Origin: Escherichia coli
GTDB taxonomy: Bacteria; Pseudomonadota; Gammaproteobacteria; Enterobacterales; Enterobacteriaceae
Direction: 5' to 3' (one strand)
DNA length: 64,000 nucleotides
Assembly (NCBI RefSeq): GCF_022846255.1
Contig: NZ_AP025682.1
The position numbers and the translations under genes are program-made. This document shows, in pieces, positions 19,037 to 64,000 of the stretch. Positions within the stretch are counted from its first letter, which is position 1, and every line of letters begins with the position of its first letter. The notes under the pieces were generated by a model. That model saw only the letters and a program-made list of their open reading frames with translations. It had not been told where the DNA came from and made no database searches.

Positions 19037-19255
19037 ATGTACTTGACACTTCAGGAGTGGAACGCACGCCAGCGACGCCCAAGAAGCCTTGAAACAGTTC
19101 GTCGATGGGTGCGCGAATGCAGGATATTCCCTCCTCCGGTTAAGGATGGAAGAGAGTATCTGTTCCACGAATCAGCGGTAAAGGTTGACTTAAATCGACC
19201 AGTAACAGGTAGCCTTTTGAAGAGGATCAGAAATGGGAAGAAGGCGAAGTCATGA
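19037..19255 (+). CDS. xis: Excisionase Xis
   Basis: 72 aa, MYLTLQEWNARQRRPRSLETVRRWVRECRIFPPPVKDGREYLFHESAVKVDL... near-identical to lambda Xis as recalled. Confidence 0.9.
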   Translation: MYLTLQEWNARQRRPRSLETVRRWVRECRIFPPPVKDGREYLFHESAVKVDLNRPVTGSLLKRIRNGKKAKS

Positions 19256-20306
19256 GCGCCGGGATTTACCCCCTAACCTTTATATAAGAAACAATGGATA
19301 TTACTGCTACAGGGACCCAAGGACGGGTAAAGAGTTCGGATTAGGCAGAGACAGGAGGATAGCAATTACTGAAGCAATACAGGCCAATATTGAGTTACTC
19401 TCAGACAGCGGACGCAAATCACTAATAGACAGAATTAAAGGCGGTGACGCAATCACTCTTCATGTGTGGCTTGACCGATATGAAACAATCCTCACCGAAA
19501 GGGGGATCAGGCCGAAAACTCTACTCGACTACGCCAGCAAAATCAGGGCAATCCGAAGAAAATTGCCGGACAAACCGCTCACTGACATATCAACGAAAGA
19601 AGTGGCAGCAATGCTAAACACCTACGTAGCAGAAGGTAAAGCAGCTTCCGCAAAATTAATCAGGTCAACCCTTGTTGACGTTTTTCGTGAAGCAATAGCC
19701 GAGGGGCATGTGGCAACGAATCCGGTAACAGCAACCCGTACAGCAAAGTCAGAAGTAAGGCGCTCAAGGCTGACAGCTAATGAGTATGTCGAGATTTACC
19801 ATGCAGCCGAACCTCTCCCTATCTGGCTAAGGCTGGCGATGGATTTGGCCGTCGTTACAGGGCAGAGAGTCGGCGATTTGTGCAGAATGAAATGGTCAGA
19901 CATAAACGACAACCATCTTCACATTGAACAGAGTAAAACAGGGGCTAAACTCGCCATTCCGCTAACGCTAACGATTGACGCGCTCAATATCTCATTGGCT
20001 GATACACTACAGAAATGCAGGGAGGCCAGCAGCAGTGAAACTATAATCGCATCAAAGCATCACGATCCGCTTTCCCCGAAAACAGTATCAAAGTATTTTA
20101 CAAAGGCGAGAAATGCATCTGGACTCTCATTTGATGGAAACCCGCCAACATTCCATGAACTGCGTAGCCTGTCAGCGAGGCTATACCGGAACCAGATTGG
20201 CGATAAGTTTGCTCAACGTCTTCTCGGGCATAAATCAGACTCAATGGCGGCGCGGTATAGGGACAGCCGTGGACGGGAATGGGACAAAATTGAAATCGAC
20301 AAATGA
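19233..20306 (+). CDS. int: Tyrosine integrase, lambda family, HK022-like
   Basis: 357 aa; N-terminal arm-binding domain identical to lambda Int, central and catalytic domains diverged; RSLSARLY and HKSD motifs. Confidence 0.95.
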   Translation: MGRRRSHERRDLPPNLYIRNNGYYCYRDPRTGKEFGLGRDRRIAITEAIQANIELLSDSGRKSLIDRIKGGDAITLHVWLDRYETILTERGIRPKTLLDYASKIRAIRRKLPDKPLTDISTKEVAAMLNTYVAEGKAASAKLIRSTLVDVFREAIAEGHVATNPVTATRTAKSEVRRSRLTANEYVEIYHAAEPLPIWLRLAMDLAVVTGQRVGDLCRMKWSDINDNHLHIEQSKTGAKLAIPLTLTIDALNISLADTLQKCREASSSETIIASKHHDPLSPKTVSKYFTKARNASGLSFDGNPPTFHELRSLSARLYRNQIGDKFAQRLLGHKSDSMAARYRDSRGREWDKIEIDK

Positions 20307-20400
20307 TTTTATTTTGACTAATAATGACCTGCCTACATTAATTCATTGATAATAAAAGAGATTTTAAATATACAACTTATTCACCTAAAGTGCACCGACC
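20307..20400. other. Approximate prophage-chromosome junction (attL)
   Basis: AT-rich 94 bp between int stop and torS start; core not located at nucleotide resolution. Confidence 0.35.
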
Positions 20401-23133
20401 GTGAATTTAACCCTGACCCGAAGACTCTGGATGGGCTTTGCCCTGATGGCGCTGTTAACCCTGACCAGTACCCTGGTGGGATGGTACAACCTGCGCTTTA
20501 TCAGCCTGGTGGAAAAAGACAACACTCAGGCATTGATTCCTACCATGAATATGGCGCGCCAGTTGAGCGAAGCCAGCGCCTGGGAACTTTTCGCCGCGCA
20601 GAACCTGACCAGTGCCGATAACGAAAAGATGTGGCAGGCGCAGGGGCGAATGCTCACCGCACAAAGCCTGAAGATTAATGCGTTGCTGCAAGCGTTACGG
20701 GAACAAGGTTTTGACACCACCGCTATTGAACAACAGGAGCAGGAGATCTCCCGTTCGTTACGTCAGCAAGGGGAACTGGTGGGACAGCGTTTGCAACTGC
20801 GCCAGCAACAACAGCAACTCAGTCAGCAGATAGTCGCCGCCGCCGATGAGATCGCACGCCTGGCGCAAGGTCAGGCGAATAATGCGGCAACCTCCGCCGG
20901 AGCGACCCAGGCCGGGATTTACGATTTGATCGAACAACATCAGCGTCAGGCCGCAGAAAGTGCACTCGATCGGCTGATTGATATCGATCTTGAGTATGTT
21001 AACCAGATGAATGAACTGCGCCTTAGCGCCCTACGGGTGCAGCAAATGGTGATGAATCTGGGGCTGGAACAGATCCAGAAAAATGCGCCAACGCTGGAAA
21101 AGCAGCTCAATAATGCGGTGAAAATTCTGCAACGTCGGCAAATACGCATTGAAGATCCGGGTGTTCGTACTCAGGTAGCAACAACGTTAACTACCGTTAG
21201 CCAATATAGCGATTTGCTGGCGCTGTATCAGCAGGACAGTGAAATCAGCAATCACCTGCAAACTCTCGCCCAAAATAACATCGCCCAATTCGCGCAGTTT
21301 AGTAGCGAAGTCAGTCAGCTGGTCGACACCATTGAGCTGCGTAATCAGCACGGACTGGCGCATCTGGAAAAAGCCAGTGCACGCGGGCAATACAGCCTGT
21401 TATTGCTGGGGATGGTTTCACTTTGCGCACTGATACTGATCCTCTGGCGCGTGGTTTATCGCTCAGTCACGCGTCCACTTGCCGAACAAACGCAGGCACT
21501 GCAACGACTGCTGGACGGTGATATTGACTCCCCTTTCCCGGAAACCGCTGGCGTACGGGAACTGGACACCATCGGGCGGCTGATGGATGCGTTTCGCAGC
21601 AGTGTTCATGCACTGAATCGCCACCGTGAACAGTTGGCGGCGCAGGTCAAAGCGCGTACAGCTGAATTGCAGGAACTGGTGATAGAACACCGACAGGCAC
21701 GGGCGGAAGCAGAAAAAGCCAACCAGGCAAAATCAGCGTTTCTGGCGGCGATGAGCCATGAGATCCGCACACCGCTGTACGGTATTCTCGGTACCGCACA
21801 GCTACTGGCAGATAACCCCGCACTTAACGCTCAGCGTGATGATTTGCGGGCAATTACCGACTCTGGCGAATCGTTGCTGACCATCCTCAACGATATTCTC
21901 GATTATTCGGCTATCGAAGCAGGCGGCAAGAATGTTTCGGTCAGCGATGAACCCTTTGAACCGCGCCCGTTGCTGGAAAGTACCCTGCAATTAATGAGCG
22001 GACGGGTGAAAGGTCGCCCGATTCGCCTGGCAACGGCAATTGCCGACGATGTACCGACTGCGTTAATGGGCGATCCGCGGCGTATTCGTCAGGTCATTAC
22101 CAACCTGTTGAGCAACGCCCTGCGTTTCACCGACGAAGGGCACATTATCCTGCGTAGTCGCACTGATGGCGAACAATGGCTGGTCGAAGTGGAAGACAGC
22201 GGTTGCGGTATTGATCCCGCGAAACTGGCAGAAATCTTCCAGCCATTTGTTCAGGTAAGCAGCAAACGCGGCGGAACCGGGCTGGGGCTGACTATCAGTA
22301 GCCGTCTGGCCCAGGCGATGGGCGGCGAACTGAGCGCCACCAGCACGCCGGAGGTTGGAAGCTGTTTTTGTTTACGCTTGCCGTTACGTATTGCCACTGC
22401 ACCCGTGCCAAAAACAGTCAATCAGGCGGTACGTCTGGACGATTTGCGTTTGCTGTTAATTGAAGATAACCCGCTCACCCAGCGAATTACTGTCGAAATG
22501 CTGAACACCAGTGGTGCGCAGGTCGTTGCAGTAGGAAATGCCGCGCAGGCTTTAGAGACACTGCAAAATAGTGAACCATTTGCTGTCGCACTGGTGGATT
22601 TTGATCTGCCGGATATCGACGGCATTACGCTTGCCCGGCAACTGGCACAGCAATATCCGTCGCTGGTTTTGATTGGCTTTAGCGCTCATGTCATCGACGA
22701 AACACTGCGCCAGCGTACCAGTTCGCTATTTCGCGGGATTATCCCTAAACCGGTGCCGCGTGAAGTGCTCGCTCAATTACTGGCGCACTATCTCCAACTG
22801 CAAGTCAAAAATGATCAACCGCTGGATGTATCGCAACTCAATGAAGATGCTCATTTAATGGGGGCGGAGAAGATCCACGAATGGCTGATATTATTTAAAC
22901 AACATGCCCTGCCGCTTCTCGATGAAATCGACATTGCCCGCGCCAGTCAGGATAACGAGAAAATAAAGCGTGCCGCACATCAGCTAAAAAGCAGTTGCTC
23001 GAGTCTGGGAATGCGTAGCGCCAGCCAGCAATGCGCACAACTGGAGCAGCAGCCATTATCTGCCCCCCTTCCACACGAAGAAATTACACGCAGTGTTGCC
23101 GCTCTGGAAGCATGGTTAATAAGAAAGACCTGA
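20401..23133 (+). CDS. torS: TorS hybrid sensor kinase
   Basis: 910 aa, [33 protein letters not shown]..., HisKA/HATPase/receiver/HPt; GTG start. Confidence 0.95.
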
Positions 23134-24904: not shown

Positions 24905-25117
24905 TTAGAGTGTAACAACGTTCGCTGCCGCGGGACCACGTTGCCCCTGCTCAATAGAAAATTCAACTTTCTGATTTTCGTTCAGCGTGCGGAATTCATT
25001 GCTCTGGATGGCAGTGAAATGGACGAAAACGTCTTTGCTGCCATCATCAGGAGTGATAAAGCCAAAACCTTTATCTGCGTTAAACCATTTTACTAAACCA
25101 GTCATTTTATTAGACAT
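24905..25117 (-). CDS. cspG: Cold-shock protein CspG
   Basis: 70 aa, [34 protein letters not shown]... Confidence 0.9.
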
Positions 25118-25402: not shown

Positions 25403-25615
25403 TTGTCCCGTAAAATGACAGGAATTGTCAAAACCTTTGATCGCAAAAGCGGCAAAGGATTCATTATCCCCTCCGACGGTCGTAAAGAAGTCCAGGTCCA
25501 TATTTCCGCATTCACTCCCCGCGACGCAGAAGTGCTTATACCAGGATTACGCGTGGAATTTTGCCGCGTAAATGGCCTGCGTGGACCAACAGCGGCAAAT
25601 GTTTATTTGTCTTGA
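25403..25615 (+). CDS. cspH: CspH-like cold-shock-domain protein
   Basis: 70 aa, [33 protein letters not shown]... Confidence 0.8.
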
Positions 25616-26913
25616 TGGAGAGCGCACGCTGGTATGCGTGCTTCATTCACGATTTGCGTAAAACCGGCCAACGAACACATGCCCTGCGCATTTCGCTCTT
25701 CACATCCTGCCAGGGTCAGTTTCACCTCTCCGGGCGGCGTATTTAATGATAGCGGCGTTTTATCACGCATCTGCTGTAAAGTCTGGAAGACCAGCGAAAC
25801 CTGAATCCACTGGCTGTTATCGCTGAGCCGACGCCAGCGTTCAAACACCAGTTCACCACCTGGCGGCGTGTTATCCGGCTGACCTGGAAGTGTCCAGTTG
25901 AGCTCCAGTGCGCCGCCGAGATTTGCCAGATTAGTATCGTGTCCGGCAATAAACAGCACTGAAGTGGGTAATGTCACACCATACGCCTGTTTTTGCGATG
26001 GATGGGGCGTCAACGCTGCCATGATCAAATCCAATAACGGGGTGGCGCGACTGCGGGCAACCTCTGGCGTGCGTTGTAGTAAATAAAATTGCGCGTTATG
26101 TAGACTTAGCAAGGTGTTCCACTGGTGTGAATCGGTGATCCTTCCCCACCCCGGCTCCGGCATTCCCTGTGCTTGTTGCAGGAGAAATATCTCCGTCAGC
26201 ATTGATGCGAGGCTTACCGCACCGGTTAATGAGACATTGTCGGCGCTCACCTTGAGTTCCGATGGTAATGCCTGCGTTAATGAACAGCTTTCGTCCTGTT
26301 TCTTACGGTTAAGGCACAAGTTTGATTGCGGGAAATTAAGCACCCGTTCCAGTTCGCGAAACGCCGTTTGCCGATGCCCGGCAAAGTCAGCAATTGCCCC
26401 TCCTGCCCTACTGAGGATCGCGTCAGTCACGTTCGCGTTATCCAGTTGGCAAACGCCAGTTTTTAGAGGATTAAATAACGGATCGGGACTGGACGTATCT
26501 GCCTGGGTATGTACGGTTATTGCACAGTCAGGTTCCAGCCCGGCGGCGAAGGCTTCGCCTGTTTTACGGGTACGTTCGTCGACATCAGCAATAACCGCGA
26601 CCTGACCTGGCTGCGGGCAGCCCTTTTTTGCCAGCAATCCGTCGGCCACCAGACGCTGGCGTTGGTAATGTCCGAGATAAGCGATTAACTCACCACCGCG
26701 CGGTGTCAGCCAACCCAGTTTTACCGGCCAGGTTGGCCATGCGTCAGGGGTGACATCCTGCATCAGTTGCGTGGCCTTGGTTGGTGCACGCACACCGTGA
26801 CGACTGACAATCACCACACTTTCCAGCTTCAGCTCCGGCTCACTCTGAGCGAATGCAGATTTCGGTGTTAACGGAATCAGAAGAGATAAGAATGGGATCA
26901 AGATCGCTTTCAT
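25603..26913 (-). CDS. appA: AppA periplasmic acid phosphatase/phytase
   Basis: [46 protein letters not shown]..., RHGxRxP motif. Confidence 0.95.
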
Positions 26914-26992
26914 CGATATGTTTCCGCTTTTCATATCCGACATTATTGATTGCCTGATGCGACGCTAATGCGCCTCATCAGGCTTACCTTCG

Positions 26993-27085
26993 TTAACTTT
27001 TCAATCGCGGGTCCAGCCATACCAACACAAGGGTGGAGAGCGAACACATCAACAAAATGCCGACGAACCAAAGTAAATACCACAT
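26993..27085 (-). CDS. appX: AppX (cytochrome bd-II small subunit)
   Basis: Manual translation MWYLLWFVGILLMCSLSTLVLVWLDPRLKS, 30 aa, between appB and appA. Confidence 0.7.
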   Translation of the reverse strand: MWYLLWFVGILLMCSLSTLVLVWLDPRLKS

Positions 27086-27097
27086 TGTTCCTGCTCC

Positions 27098-28234
27098 TTA
27101 GTACAGCTCGTTTTCGTTACGGCGGAGAGTTTCTGTCGTCATGCGCCCCCACATTTTGTAGTAGCTCCAGAGAGTGTAGAGCAACACAATGGGCAAAAAT
27201 ATCAGCACGATTACCAACATAATGCTCAGCGTCAGCTGACTGGAAGTGCTGTCCCACAACGTCAGGCTGGAGATCGGACTCACGCTTGACGGCATGACAA
27301 AGGGGAACAGCGTGATGCCTGCCGTGAAAATCACGCCAAATTGCATCAATGACGCCATCAAAAATCCCCAACCCGGGCGACCACGATAAATCGCCATCAC
27401 CGTCAGCAATGGGCAGAAGAACCCCAGCAGCGGGAAGATCCACAAAACGGGCGATTCGACGAAATTATTCATCCAGACACCAGGTAGCACTGCCACCAGT
27501 TTCATTAACGGATTGGAAGGACCGTTAGCATCCTGGGCGAGCAGTACAAAGCCATCAATACCAACCCACAGCCAGTAACCCGCCAGCAAAAAGCACAGCA
27601 TCACCAGTAGTGCGGCGCGTTTGGTCGCCAGCTGTGAACGCAGATGAATCACACCAACAGTTTTCAGTTGTAACCAGACGCCACCTTGCAAAATCACCAT
27701 CCCAAGACTGAGCAATCCACACAATAAAGGGAATGGCGTCAGCAGTTGCCAGAAGCTGCCGAGATATTCCACGCGTAATTGCGGTGTGAAAGCAAACGGC
27801 ACGCCGAGCAGCAAGTTGCCGAATGCAATACCGAAGACTACCGGCGGCACCAGACTGCCGATGACCAGTCCGGCATCCCACATTTTACGCCAGCGTGCAT
27901 CGGCGATTTTTCCGCGATAATCAAAGGCCAGCGGGCGGAAGAACAGCGAGCACAGCACCAGAATCATCGCCACATAAAAGCCGGAAAACGCCGCTGCATA
28001 CACTCTGGGCCAGGCGGCAAATAATGCCCCACCTGCGAGGATCAACCAGACCTGATTACCTTCCCAGTGCGCGCCAACGCTGTTTATCACTATCCGACGT
28101 TCATCATCATTACGCGCCACCAGCGGCAGCAGACAGCCGATCCCCATGTCAAATCCGTCGGAGATCATAAAGACCACCAGGATCACGCCAATAAGCAGCC
28201 ACCAGATGAAGCGCAATGTTTCATAATCAAACAT
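27098..28234 (-). CDS. appB: Cytochrome bd-II oxidase subunit II
   Basis: 378 aa polytopic membrane protein. Confidence 0.95.
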
Positions 28235-28245
28235 GATTTTCTCCT

Positions 28246-29790
28246 TTACCCCTGTTGCTGCGTCGGTTGTTCACTCTGCATCGCGCTCGGACCCAGACGG
28301 GCATATTTCTGCATCAGGTAGACTTCGGCGATTAAGAACAGGGTGTAAAGCCCTACGATCATGATCAGTGAGAAAGCCAGTTGTCCTGTGGTTAAGGCGG
28401 AGTGCGCGGAGTATGTCGGTAAGATGTCTTGTATCGCCCACGGCTGACGACCAAACTCGGTCATAAACCATCCGGCTTCAATCGCAATCCACGGCAGCGG
28501 CAAACTCCAGAGCGCCATTTTCAGCACCCAGCGATGCTGGTCGATTTTGCCACGCAGCGTCTGGACAAGCGCAATCAGCATCACCAGTAGCAGCAGGGAA
28601 CCACAGCCCACCATGATGCGGAAACTCCAGAATACCGGCGCAACCTGAGGTATCGCGCCACGCATCGCCGCCTGGTACTGTGCGGCTGTGACATGATTCA
28701 TATCCGGCGCATAGCGGGAGAGCAACATGCCGTAACCCAGGTCACCTTCCAGCTCCCGGAATGCCTGCAACACATGCGGCTCACGATTGCCTTGCGATAT
28801 TTCCTGCATTAACAGCCACGCCATACGTCCGCGTTGCAAGCGTGGGTAGGTTTCAGCCATCAAATTCTTCAGACCCGGCACGGGTTTATCTAATGAATGA
28901 GTGGCGAGGATCCCTAGCAGCGCGGGAATTTTGATGGCAAAGGCGTTACGCTCTTGATCCTGTTCCGGCCAGGCAACCACATGGAACGGTGCAGGTGCAG
29001 GTTCCGTTTGCCACTCCCCTTCCATCGCCGCCAGTTTTACCGGTTGTACTTGCGCGACTTCATACGCAGAACTGTCTCCGAGTTGCAGCGTACCGATAAT
29101 CGCCAGAGTACCGAAGACGGAACCGATGGCAAACGAGCGTAATGCGACATCGCGCTCCCGTCCGCGCAGTAAATACCAGGCGCTGATCGCCATAATAAAC
29201 ATAGCCCCGGTCACGTATCCCGCCATTACGGTGTGCACAAATTTCACCTGGCTGACCGGGTTAAAGACCAACTCGCTGAAACTGGTCATCTCCATACGCA
29301 GGGTGTCGATATCAAAATGCGCACCGGTCGGGTATTGCATCCAACCGTTGGCATTCAATATCCACAACGCAGAGAGATTTGAACCGAACGCCACCAGCCA
29401 CGTCACCAGCAGGTGCTGGTATTTATTCAGCCGCTGCCAGCCGAAGAAGAACAGCCCGACAAAGGTGGATTCGAGGAAGAAGGCCATTAATGCTTCCATC
29501 GCCAGCGGTGCGCCAAAAATATCGCCCACATAGTTGGAATAGAATGACCAGTTAGTACCAAACTGAAACTCCATGGTCAGGCCGGTAGCCACGCCAAGAG
29601 CAAAGTTGATACCGAAGAGCTTACCCCAGAAGCGCGTCATATCGCGGTAGATTGTTTTGCCGGTGACCACGTAAATGGTTTCCATGATAGCCAGCAAAAA
29701 AATCAGCCCCAGGGTAAGGGGTACAAATAAAAAGTGATACAGCGCGGTCAGAGCAAACTGCCAGCGCGATAAATCAATGACATCCCACAT
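28246..29790 (-). CDS. appC: Cytochrome bd-II oxidase subunit I
   Basis: [29 protein letters not shown]... Confidence 0.95.
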
Positions 29791-59701: not shown

Positions 59702-59798
59702 ATTGTCACTTTTACTCTAAGAAAATTGTTGCGCATTATAGCTAATAAGCGCGTCATGTCATAAAGTTGAGGGCTTATTTTCATTTGAGGACCGCACC

Positions 59799-62631: not shown

Positions 62632-62867
62632 GAACTCTCCTGGATTCCCGGTGTGCAAACCGGGGGCGTATTATGTGCGAGTTCGGACCAAAAGGGAATT
62701 GACCTGCGGCAATAAATAGCAAACGTTTTCTTATTGCGCTTTTTTTATGCTTTTTTTGGCTTTTCTTCCTCAGATAAATCATTTCGACTCGCGGACGCCC
62801 TCTGTCAGACTGACCGAATTGTTATCAATGTTAACAAAACAAGAACAATTGGTTATAAGGAGAGAGT

Positions 62868-63443
62868 ATGCGTGTCATCACCCTGGCGGGTAGTCCTCGC
62901 TTTCCTTCTCGCTCCAGCTCCTTGCTGGAATATGCGCGGGAAAAACTAAATGGCCTGGATGTAGAGGTTTATCACTGGAATTTGCAAAACTTCGTCCCGG
63001 AAGATCTGCTTTATGCTCGTTTCGATAGTCCGGCACTCAAGACCTTCACCGAACAACTGCAACAGGCCGATGGGCTGATTGTCGCCACGCCTGTGTATAA
63101 AGCCGCCTATTCCGGTGCACTGAAAACCCTGCTCGACCTGCTGCCAGAACGTGCGTTGCAAGGCAAAGTGGTGCTGCCGCTGGCGACAGGCGGCACCGTG
63201 GCCCATCTGCTGGCGGTCGATTATGCCCTTAAGCCAGTTTTAAGTACGCTGAAAGCCCAGGAGATCCTGCACGGCGTGTTTGCCGATGACTCGCAAGTAA
63301 TTGATTACCAACACAAACCCCAGTTTACGCCAAATCTGCAAACTCGTCTTGATACCGCGCTAGAAACTTTCTGGCAGGCGTTGCACCGCCGCGATGTTCA
63401 GGTTCCTGACCTTCTGTCTCTGCGAGGTAATGCCCATGCGTAA
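62868..63443 (+). CDS. ssuE: NADPH-dependent FMN reductase SsuE
   Basis: 191 aa. Confidence 0.9.
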   Translation: MRVITLAGSPRFPSRSSSLLEYAREKLNGLDVEVYHWNLQNFVPEDLLYARFDSPALKTFTEQLQQADGLIVATPVYKAAYSGALKTLLDLLPERALQGKVVLPLATGGTVAHLLAVDYALKPVLSTLKAQEILHGVFADDSQVIDYQHKPQFTPNLQTRLDTALETFWQALHRRDVQVPDLLSLRGNAHA

Positions 63444-64000
63444 GATCATTAAACTGGCGCTGGCGGGTTTACTTAGCGTCTCTACACTTGCTGTTGCCGC
63501 GGAGTCTTCGCCAGAGGCGTTACGTATAGGCTATCAAAAAGGCAGTATTGGTATGGTGCTGGCAAAAAGCCACCAGTTACTGGAAAAACGCTATCCGCAA
63601 ACAAAAATCTCCTGGGTGGAGTTCCCCGCTGGCCCACAGATGCTGGAGGCGTTAAACGTTGGCAGTATCGATCTCGGCAGTACCGGGGATATTCCGCCAA
63701 TCTTTGCCCAGGCTGCCGGGGCTGATTTGGTATACGTGGGCGTCGAGCCACCGAAGCCCAAAGCCGAAGTGATTCTGGTGGCAGAAAACAGCCCGATCAA
63801 AACCGTAGCCGATCTTAAAGGTCACAAAGTTGCCTTTCAGAAAGGTTCCAGTTCGCACAATCTTTTACTGCGAGCCCTTCGCCAGGCCGGGCTTAAATTC
63901 ACGGATATTCAGCCCACTTACCTGACGCCTGCCGATGCCCGCGCCGCGTTCCAGCAAGGTAACGTTGACGCCTGGGCTATCTGGGATCCCTACTACTCCG
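63436..64000 (+). CDS. ssuA: Sulfonate-binding protein SsuA, N-terminal part (runs off window end)
   Basis: MRKIIKLALAGLLSVSTLAVAAESSPEALRIGYQKGS..., signal peptide. Confidence 0.9.
   Translation, partial: MRKIIKLALAGLLSVSTLAVAAESSPEALRIGYQKGSIGMVLAKSHQLLEKRYPQTKISWVEFPAGPQMLEALNVGSIDLGSTGDIPPIFAQAAGADLVYVGVEPPKPKAEVILVAENSPIKTVADLKGHKVAFQKGSSSHNLLLRALRQAGLKFTDIQPTYLTPADARAAFQQGNVDAWAIWDPYYS

Follow-up and report, generated by a model that had tools for sequence, protein, structure and literature searches.

The group 4 capsule (G4C) operon, gfcABCDE-etp-etk, occupies the same chromosomal site in Escherichia coli K-12, EPEC, EHEC and Shigella sonnei, where it has the same flanks, cspH and appA. 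In S. sonnei, the S2 Fig legend of one study places the cluster between these two genes (PMC4368438). As far as the available text of two genomic surveys goes, G4C genes were present in 15 of 195 B2 genomes (~8%), 13 of them LEE-positive and mostly EPEC, and G4C in intestinal pathotypes was contrasted with group 2 capsules in phylogroups B2, D and F (PMC8281228); in the second survey etk, etp and gfcBCDE were found within B2 in STc28 only (PMC8715443). The same portions of both surveys deal with gene presence and absence, and do not describe the junction at the empty site, the tail of AppA, or Escherichia species other than E. coli.

Here we describe this site in a 64-kb stretch of E. coli DNA (hereafter the window, meaning the whole of the stretch that was analysed), in which cspH and appA run into each other. 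The features at the junction are as follows:

24905..25117, minus strand: cspG, the divergent neighbour of cspH as in K-12 (ORF list; K-12 and ST80 annotation)
25403..25615, plus strand: cspH, encoding the cold-shock-like protein CspH, 70 amino acids, TTG start, TGA stop (ORF list)
25603..26913, minus strand: appA, encoding periplasmic acid phosphatase/phytase, the 436-amino-acid allele ending ...PACALHQDK (ORF list)
25603..25615, both strands: tail-to-tail coding overlap of cspH and appA, 13 bp from stop to stop (ORF coordinates)
25603..25617, minus strand: the four extra AppA codons (His-Gln-Asp-Lys) and the TAA stop, antisense to the last cspH codons
25607..25615, plus strand: allele-specific 9-nt haplotype at the end of cspH, TTG TCT TGA (Leu-Ser-stop)
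25616..25623, both strands: junction bases TGGAGAGC, which match neither flank of K-12 and, read on the minus strand, encode Leu-Ala of AppA
26993..29790, minus strand: cbdX-appB-appC, the genes of cytochrome bd-II, which lie upstream of appA, point the same way and are in synteny with K-12 (coordinates transferred from the collinear ST80 annotation)

The ORF listing bears out the original prediction, made from the letters of the window, that cspH and appA lie tail to tail with a 13-bp overlap. The TAA stop of appA reads from 25605 to 25603 on the minus strand, and the ATG start at 26913 is equivalent to the start used by RefSeq. (Note that an in-frame ATG upstream, at 26943, merely extends the mechanical ORF; RefSeq uses a 1,311-nt CDS in the genome of an ST80 strain.) That ST80 genome is the closest complete genome to the window, with which it is 99.7% identical, and RefSeq annotates in it the identical cspH/appA overlap and a 436-amino-acid appA product; the 13-bp overlap is likewise annotated in the EC31 genome. 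CspH is a 70-amino-acid CSD protein, identical to that of K-12 and encoded divergently beside cspG. Its translation is identical to that of the ST80 locus (L002), whose CspH accession, WP_000087763.1, is also K-12's.

The original prediction had been based on a K-12 map in which the capsule cluster separates the two genes, and had allowed that the map might be wrong and that appA and cspH might be adjacent in K-12 too. The map is right: RefSeq gives the K-12 order as cspG, cspH, IS1, gfcA, gfcB, gfcC, gfcD, gfcE, etp, etk, appA, cbdX, appB, appC, so that K-12 does hold the cluster between both genes. The distance from the cspH stop to the appA stop is 9,047 bp in K-12 (including IS1), 8,275 bp in O157:H7 (without IS1), 8,303 bp in E. 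albertii and 8,199 bp at a locus from a cryptic Escherichia lineage (L015). As had been predicted, gfc-etp-etk is absent from between cspH and appA in the window; indeed, neither the K-12 block nor its seven proteins found a match anywhere in the 64 kb (blastn, tblastn). None of gfcA-D, the OPX gene gfcE, the phosphatase gene etp or the BY-kinase gene etk is thus found between the two genes, and the one site at which the Etk kinase, the Etp phosphatase, the GfcE export channel and GfcABCD are usually encoded lacks all of their genes. Given that there is no export machinery at the cspH/appA locus, we would not expect the strain to assemble a group 4 (O-antigen) capsule, and its capsule is probably of group 2, as in most B2-type strains.

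Apart from the gfc block, the window and K-12 are collinear from torS to pyrD at approximately 97-98% identity. Several further features of the 64 kb were observed on the way. Positions 1-20372 are occupied by a lambdoid prophage (terminase, Bet, replication proteins) that ends with a 357-amino-acid lambda/HK022-type tyrosine integrase at 19233-20306, directly upstream of torS (20401-23133); the torS-torT intergenic region is presumably the HK022 attachment site. Homology both to K-12 and to the ST80 genome, which lacks this prophage, begins abruptly at 20373, and the prophage stretch is covered to at least 80% in one complete genome only. At the 3' end of torS (~23118), a 1-nt deletion relative to K-12 gives a protein of 910 amino acids ending ...EAWLIRKT-stop, as against 914 amino acids ending ...EAWLHKKDLNAI-stop in K-12; RefSeq flags torS as frameshifted in the ST80 genome. 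In the ycbX/rlmKL intergenic area (~59717-59722) K-12 is longer by about 140 bp, probably on account of a small repeat element. Beyond pyrD, the window continues with ssuE and ssuA (62731-64000), as does the ST80 genome, where K-12 has the elf/ycb fimbrial operon instead (elfC, elfG, ycbU, ycbV and ycbF in the stretch fetched). The pyrD flank is thus a second presence/absence difference between K-12 and the window within the same 64 kb.

The gfc-less junction is common in E. coli. A 2.3-kb query spanning the junction was contiguous in 1,678 of 5,426 complete genomes, and in the remaining genomes broke at the position equivalent to window 25624. DNA of the K-12 gfcA-etk block was present in 3,742 of the 5,426 genomes, with a median of one copy and with 3,785 of 3,790 places chromosomal. 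The two counts together amount to 5,420 of 5,426, which makes the two states practically complementary. With a 121-nt query centred on the overlap, full-length matches were obtained in 1,674 genomes, including 100% identical ones in the type strain (ATCC 11775 = DSM 30083) and in an APEC O2:K1:H4 strain. The best matches of the 2.3-kb query were the ST80 strain (99.7%) and JJ1886 (99.0%), the latter of which we take to be an ST131 strain of phylogroup B2. The G4C-less cspH-appA region is an ordinary, widespread and already documented allele, carried by about a third of E. coli genomes.

The overlap extends beyond E. coli. When the AppA of the window was used as query, with one genome per species, full-length AppA loci outside typical E. 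coli were found in E. whittamii, in Escherichia sp. E1V33 and in two GTDB species representatives labelled E. coli. All four loci have the same 13-bp overlap, with cspH adjoining appA and no gfc, and their AppA proteins are 88-92% identical to that of the window and end SLHQDK or TLYQDK; a 436-amino-acid AppA is also found in many 'Escherichia sp.' isolates. The presence of the overlap in four Escherichia lineages beyond typical E. coli argues that the junction predates E. coli and makes a strain-specific event impossible. What the original prediction missed, then, is that this is the standard B2-type allele, that of the type strain included, that it is common to cryptic Escherichia, and that no simple or recent deletion of a K-12-like arrangement is involved.

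The gfc-carrying state is likewise found outside E. coli. E. albertii has appA (432 amino acids, ending ...PACSL), etk, etp, gfcE-A and cspH in K-12 order, and L015 has gfc between cspH and appA, again in K-12 order. In E. albertii and L015 the gfc genes share 81-94% identity with those of K-12, which is also the range of the flanking app/hya genes. This divergence in step with the flanks suggests that the operon has been at the site for about as long as the lineages have been separate. (Note that E. fergusonii was recovered by none of the searches and lies outside the lineages compared.)

Both alleles occur within E. coli and within one cryptic lineage, while E. albertii carries gfc and E. 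whittamii the overlap; the structural polymorphism is therefore trans-lineage, each allele being present in more than one species-level lineage with flanks that match its own lineage. In the cryptic lineage the two states can be compared side by side in L015 (gfc+) and L021 (overlap). On the appA side these loci show 28 differences in 11,296 nt (99.75% identity) and none at all in the last 265 nt, and on the cspH side 0 of approximately 520 nt differ except for four changes within nine junction nucleotides. Judging from these alignments, flanks are homogenised within lineages right up to the heterology. (The two loci, from read-archive assemblies SRR31021684 for L015 and SRR31284072 for L021, are a natural pair for a study of allele exchange.) The nine bases themselves are specific to the allele: alleles that carry gfc have CT(C/T) TCT TAA at the end of cspH, as against TTG TCT TGA in the window. 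Because these allele-specific nine bases recur in every lineage examined, each allele is likely to have a single old origin.

Two further loci, L018 from read-archive sample SRR26188688 and L022 from SRR33454298, have neither the operon nor the overlap. In L018 the sequence from the cspH stop to the appA stop reads TGA-ATGAAGAGAGCG-TTA, a 12-nt spacer without gfc, and AppA ends ...GL-stop; in L022 it reads TAA-AGAGTGCA-TTA, an 8-nt spacer without gfc, and AppA ends ...SL-stop. L018 retains the appCB-cbdX-appA synteny, and on the short L022 contig cbdX lies directly upstream of appA. The AppA proteins of these loci are 76-79% identical to that of the window, and in a rooted appA tree both fall outside the group that E. 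coli forms with E. albertii and the cryptic lineages, an outgroup position that rests on a single-gene neighbour-joining tree (rooted on L020, the AppA of which NCBI names as Citrobacter braakii, with L016 the next most distant). The AppA proteins of K-12, O157, E. albertii and more distant orthologues all end ...PAC(S/G/A)L-stop, without HQDK. This ending of the distant orthologues, together with the outside position of L018 and L022, suggests that the likely root state was gfc-less, with a short spacer and a short AppA. Moreover, the last five spacer bases of L022 and the appA stop, GTGCA-TTA, also form the right border of the E. albertii gfc block, and the right border in K-12, ATGCA-TTA, is nearly the same; on sequence grounds this match fits an old insertion of the operon into the cspH/appA spacer. 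(The neighbourhoods of L016 and L020, from distant genera, were also considered for polarity; there appA adjoins neither cspH nor etk, so these loci carry no information on the point.)

The gfc block displays none of the signs of an island that were looked for, namely deviant G+C, an integrase, a tRNA and flanking direct repeats. Its G+C content of 50-51% is like that of the flanks, no integrase or tRNA is annotated, repeats at its borders are at most 6 nt long and differ between lineages, and its sole mobile element is the IS1 that is specific to K-12. In all three gfc+ lineages (K-12, E. albertii and L015) a terminator hairpin of etk lies 5-6 nt from the appA stop. A search through relatives of Etk found no donor of the block with cspH/appA flanks. 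The matches at 82-87% (P0005, P0007) proved to be wza/wzc-type genes on mobile islands, without gfcABCD, and Pseudescherichia vulneris, which has the full seven-gene module, was rejected as donor since the module lies there in an unrelated context and at approximately 73% identity.

At the junction itself, homology to K-12 ends at approximately 25613-25616 of the window and restarts at 25624. Three of the last nine nucleotides of cspH differ (TTG TCT TGA versus CTC TCT TAA), all synonymously, and the eight nucleotides that follow (TGGAGAGC) match neither K-12 flank. When the flanks were aligned to the window, the junction was thus not the left flank joined to the right flank without novel bases, and a simple deletion from a K-12-like arrangement was rejected. 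Of note, the 7-mer GAGAGCG at 25618-25624 is identical to part of the 12-nt spacer of the outgroup-like L018, a match that could be due to chance. A purely ancestral absence of the cluster, entertained after the overlap had been found at the four cryptic loci, was revised given that E. albertii and L015 carry gfc at the site and that distant AppA proteins end ...L-stop.

The altered C-terminus of AppA was also anticipated by the original prediction, which gave ...IPACSL for K-12: the window has ...PACALHQDK, and K-12, O157 and the gfc-carrying GPEC1185 all have ...RIPACSL-stop. The protein otherwise has the motifs of a histidine acid phosphatase/phytase, RHGVRAP (RHGxRxP) and GHDTN (the HD motif), and matches the solved AppA structures in the PDB with E = 5e-274 over residues 23-432 (phmmer). 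The four residues after Leu432 have no counterpart in any solved structure; the HQDK tail is hydrophilic and starts two residues past the last cysteine. In view of the frequency of the allele, the effect of the tail on AppA is probably negligible. (A fragment 100% identical to K-12 AppA also came up in L007, a contig of 317 bp, NZ_VUJW01000157.1, from an assembly that bears the name Nocardioides antri and is almost certainly contaminated here with E. coli DNA.) As regards transcript ends, a pattern scan found no intrinsic terminator between or across the ends of cspH and appA in the window, and RNA folds of the two 3' regions there were no better than those of shuffled sequences (z = -0.7 and -1.5), as compared with z = -3.3 for the etk/appA hairpin of K-12. 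The convergent cspH and appA transcripts probably run into each other's coding regions, as judged from these scans, and an antisense effect between them is speculation.

We consider it very likely that the junction is one of two old structural alleles that occur across E. coli and sister Escherichia, the one without the 8.2-kb gfcABCDE-etp-etk operon, and that it was inherited rather than created in this strain. A recent deletion of the capsule cluster from a K-12-like arrangement, specific to the strain or clone, is suggested by the bare comparison with K-12 and by nothing more, and we give it practically no chance, as 1,674-1,678 complete genomes, among them that of the type strain, share the identical junction, as four other Escherichia lineages, with AppA proteins at 88-92% identity to that of the window, have the overlap as well, and as the two K-12 flanks do not add up to the junction. 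A recent or simple deletion is excluded as the origin of the overlap allele. Very improbable, too, is that gfc-etp-etk is present elsewhere in this genome, having moved. There is no match in the 64-kb window, and since the 3,742 gfc carriers and 1,678 junction carriers account for 5,420 of 5,426 genomes (median one copy; 3,785 of 3,790 places chromosomal), the cluster is essentially never relocated when it is absent from the cspH/appA site. Of the two origins that the original prediction had offered, a deletion with its junction in the 3' ends of both genes and an ancestral state lacking the cluster, the truth would lie within the pair in an ancient sense, and the simple or recent deletion of a K-12-type cluster is the part that the junction bases exclude.

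In the series of events that we propose, the root state would have been a gfc-less, tail-to-tail cspH/appA pair with a spacer of 8-12 nt, and the gfc operon would be an old insertion into that spacer. The overlap allele would have arisen once, either by a microdeletion of approximately 13 nt in which the spacer was lost with a single base of the appA stop, a route that the junction sequence may slightly favour, or by an ancient loss of the whole operon. In the window appA has lost its usual stop after ...SL, and its frame runs on for four codons (HQDK), antisense to the last codons of cspH. That the overlap allele never had gfc, and descends by a net 13-nt microdeletion from the gfc-less short-spacer state, gfc having been inserted on a different allele, has in our judgement a nearly even chance of being right. 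In its favour, the likely root state lacks gfc and has a spacer; TC(C/T) TGA is common to the overlap alleles and L018, and TCT TAA to the gfc+ alleles and L022; a 13-nt deletion in L018 would give TGA TA CAA..., in agreement with L021 and L003, which have the TGA TA + Leu pattern, and with the frame L-Y-Q-(D/E)-(K/R)-stop; and the GAGAGCG 7-mer is common to the window and the L018 spacer. This history, however, requires that gfc-less and gfc+ alleles already existed side by side before E. albertii split off, and have done so since, or that one of the alleles was transferred laterally early on; more than one small deletion would be needed to get from L018 to a junction of the window type; and just one or two substitutions separate this history from the model of a large deletion. 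That large deletion, which is a serious possibility, if one we put somewhat below even, would start from an ancestor with gfc, common to E. coli, E. albertii and the cryptic clades, in which a single old deletion of 8.2 kb, with short ATA/TA microhomologies as its possible end points, took away the operon together with the stop codon of appA; the allele would then have spread or persisted with a few substitutions in the overlap, one of which turned the cspH stop TAA into TGA. E. albertii carries gfc and is the earliest ingroup branch in the appA tree, which favours loss over never having had gfc; the gfc genes diverge in step with their flanks, so that the gfc+ state is at least as old as the E. 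albertii split; ATA is found at both borders of the block in L015, where the deletion product has the exact length and register of the L021 overlap allele; and the ...SL-stop ending of AppA is ancestral, the HQDK tail derived. The predicted product, ...TCT TAA TA TAA ACT..., would nevertheless end AppA in ...SLY-stop, the observed overlap alleles differ from it at three or four of the last nine cspH nucleotides although flanks are otherwise identical within a lineage, GAGAGC of the window has no source in either gfc+ flank, and the two gfc-less short-spacer relatives indicate that a cluster-less tail-to-tail pair existed independently. Ancient loss and microdeletion fit the evidence about equally well.

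A wider reading would be that both alleles, each recognisable by a 9-nt haplotype of its own in the final bases of cspH, have been kept or repeatedly exchanged across Escherichia since approximately the E. albertii split, perhaps under niche-dependent selection between lifestyles with an O-antigen capsule and with a group 2 capsule, with the overlap allele derived from the older gfc-less short-spacer state and the K-12 arrangement the derived one. We put this reading forward tentatively and regard it as possible, if rather doubtful. Should descent from the gfc-less short-spacer state be true, the overlap allele would not be a degraded K-12 arrangement; the K-12 reference would be the derived one.

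The absence of G4C from most B2-type E. coli is already published, and the overlapping annotation is present in more than 1,600 RefSeq genomes. For annotation, the locus is a caution that K-12 is not the default state at cspH/appA, and that the 436-amino-acid AppA with its HQDK tail is a normal, widespread allele, neither a truncation nor a sequencing artefact; phytase engineering is based on the 432-amino-acid K-12 form. The presence/absence polymorphism of the capsule locus is older than the species, and it constitutes no new system. The series of short spacer, gfc insertion and 13-bp overlap, a small example of convergent gene-end remodelling, is not described in those parts of the published G4C work that were available to us.

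Compared with the G4C-carrying locus, the window is without the entire operon, its cspH ends TTG TCT TGA rather than CTC TCT TAA, and its appA has neither the stop after ...SL nor the adjacent etk terminator hairpin. The short-spacer arrangement of L018 and L022 is likewise a tail-to-tail cspH/appA pair without the capsule operon, but there the genes are 12 or 8 nt apart and AppA has no HQDK tail, whereas in the window the genes overlap and AppA has the tail. The gfc-less B2-type E. coli (ATCC 11775, JJ1886 and the ST80 strain Es_ST80_L1_NDM_10_2017) have the same gene order, the same 13-bp overlap and the same 436-amino-acid AppA, with no difference of substance at the locus. Set against the distribution of G4C in the available portions of the published surveys, the closest relatives of the window are B2-type strains, and the absence seen here is the documented norm.
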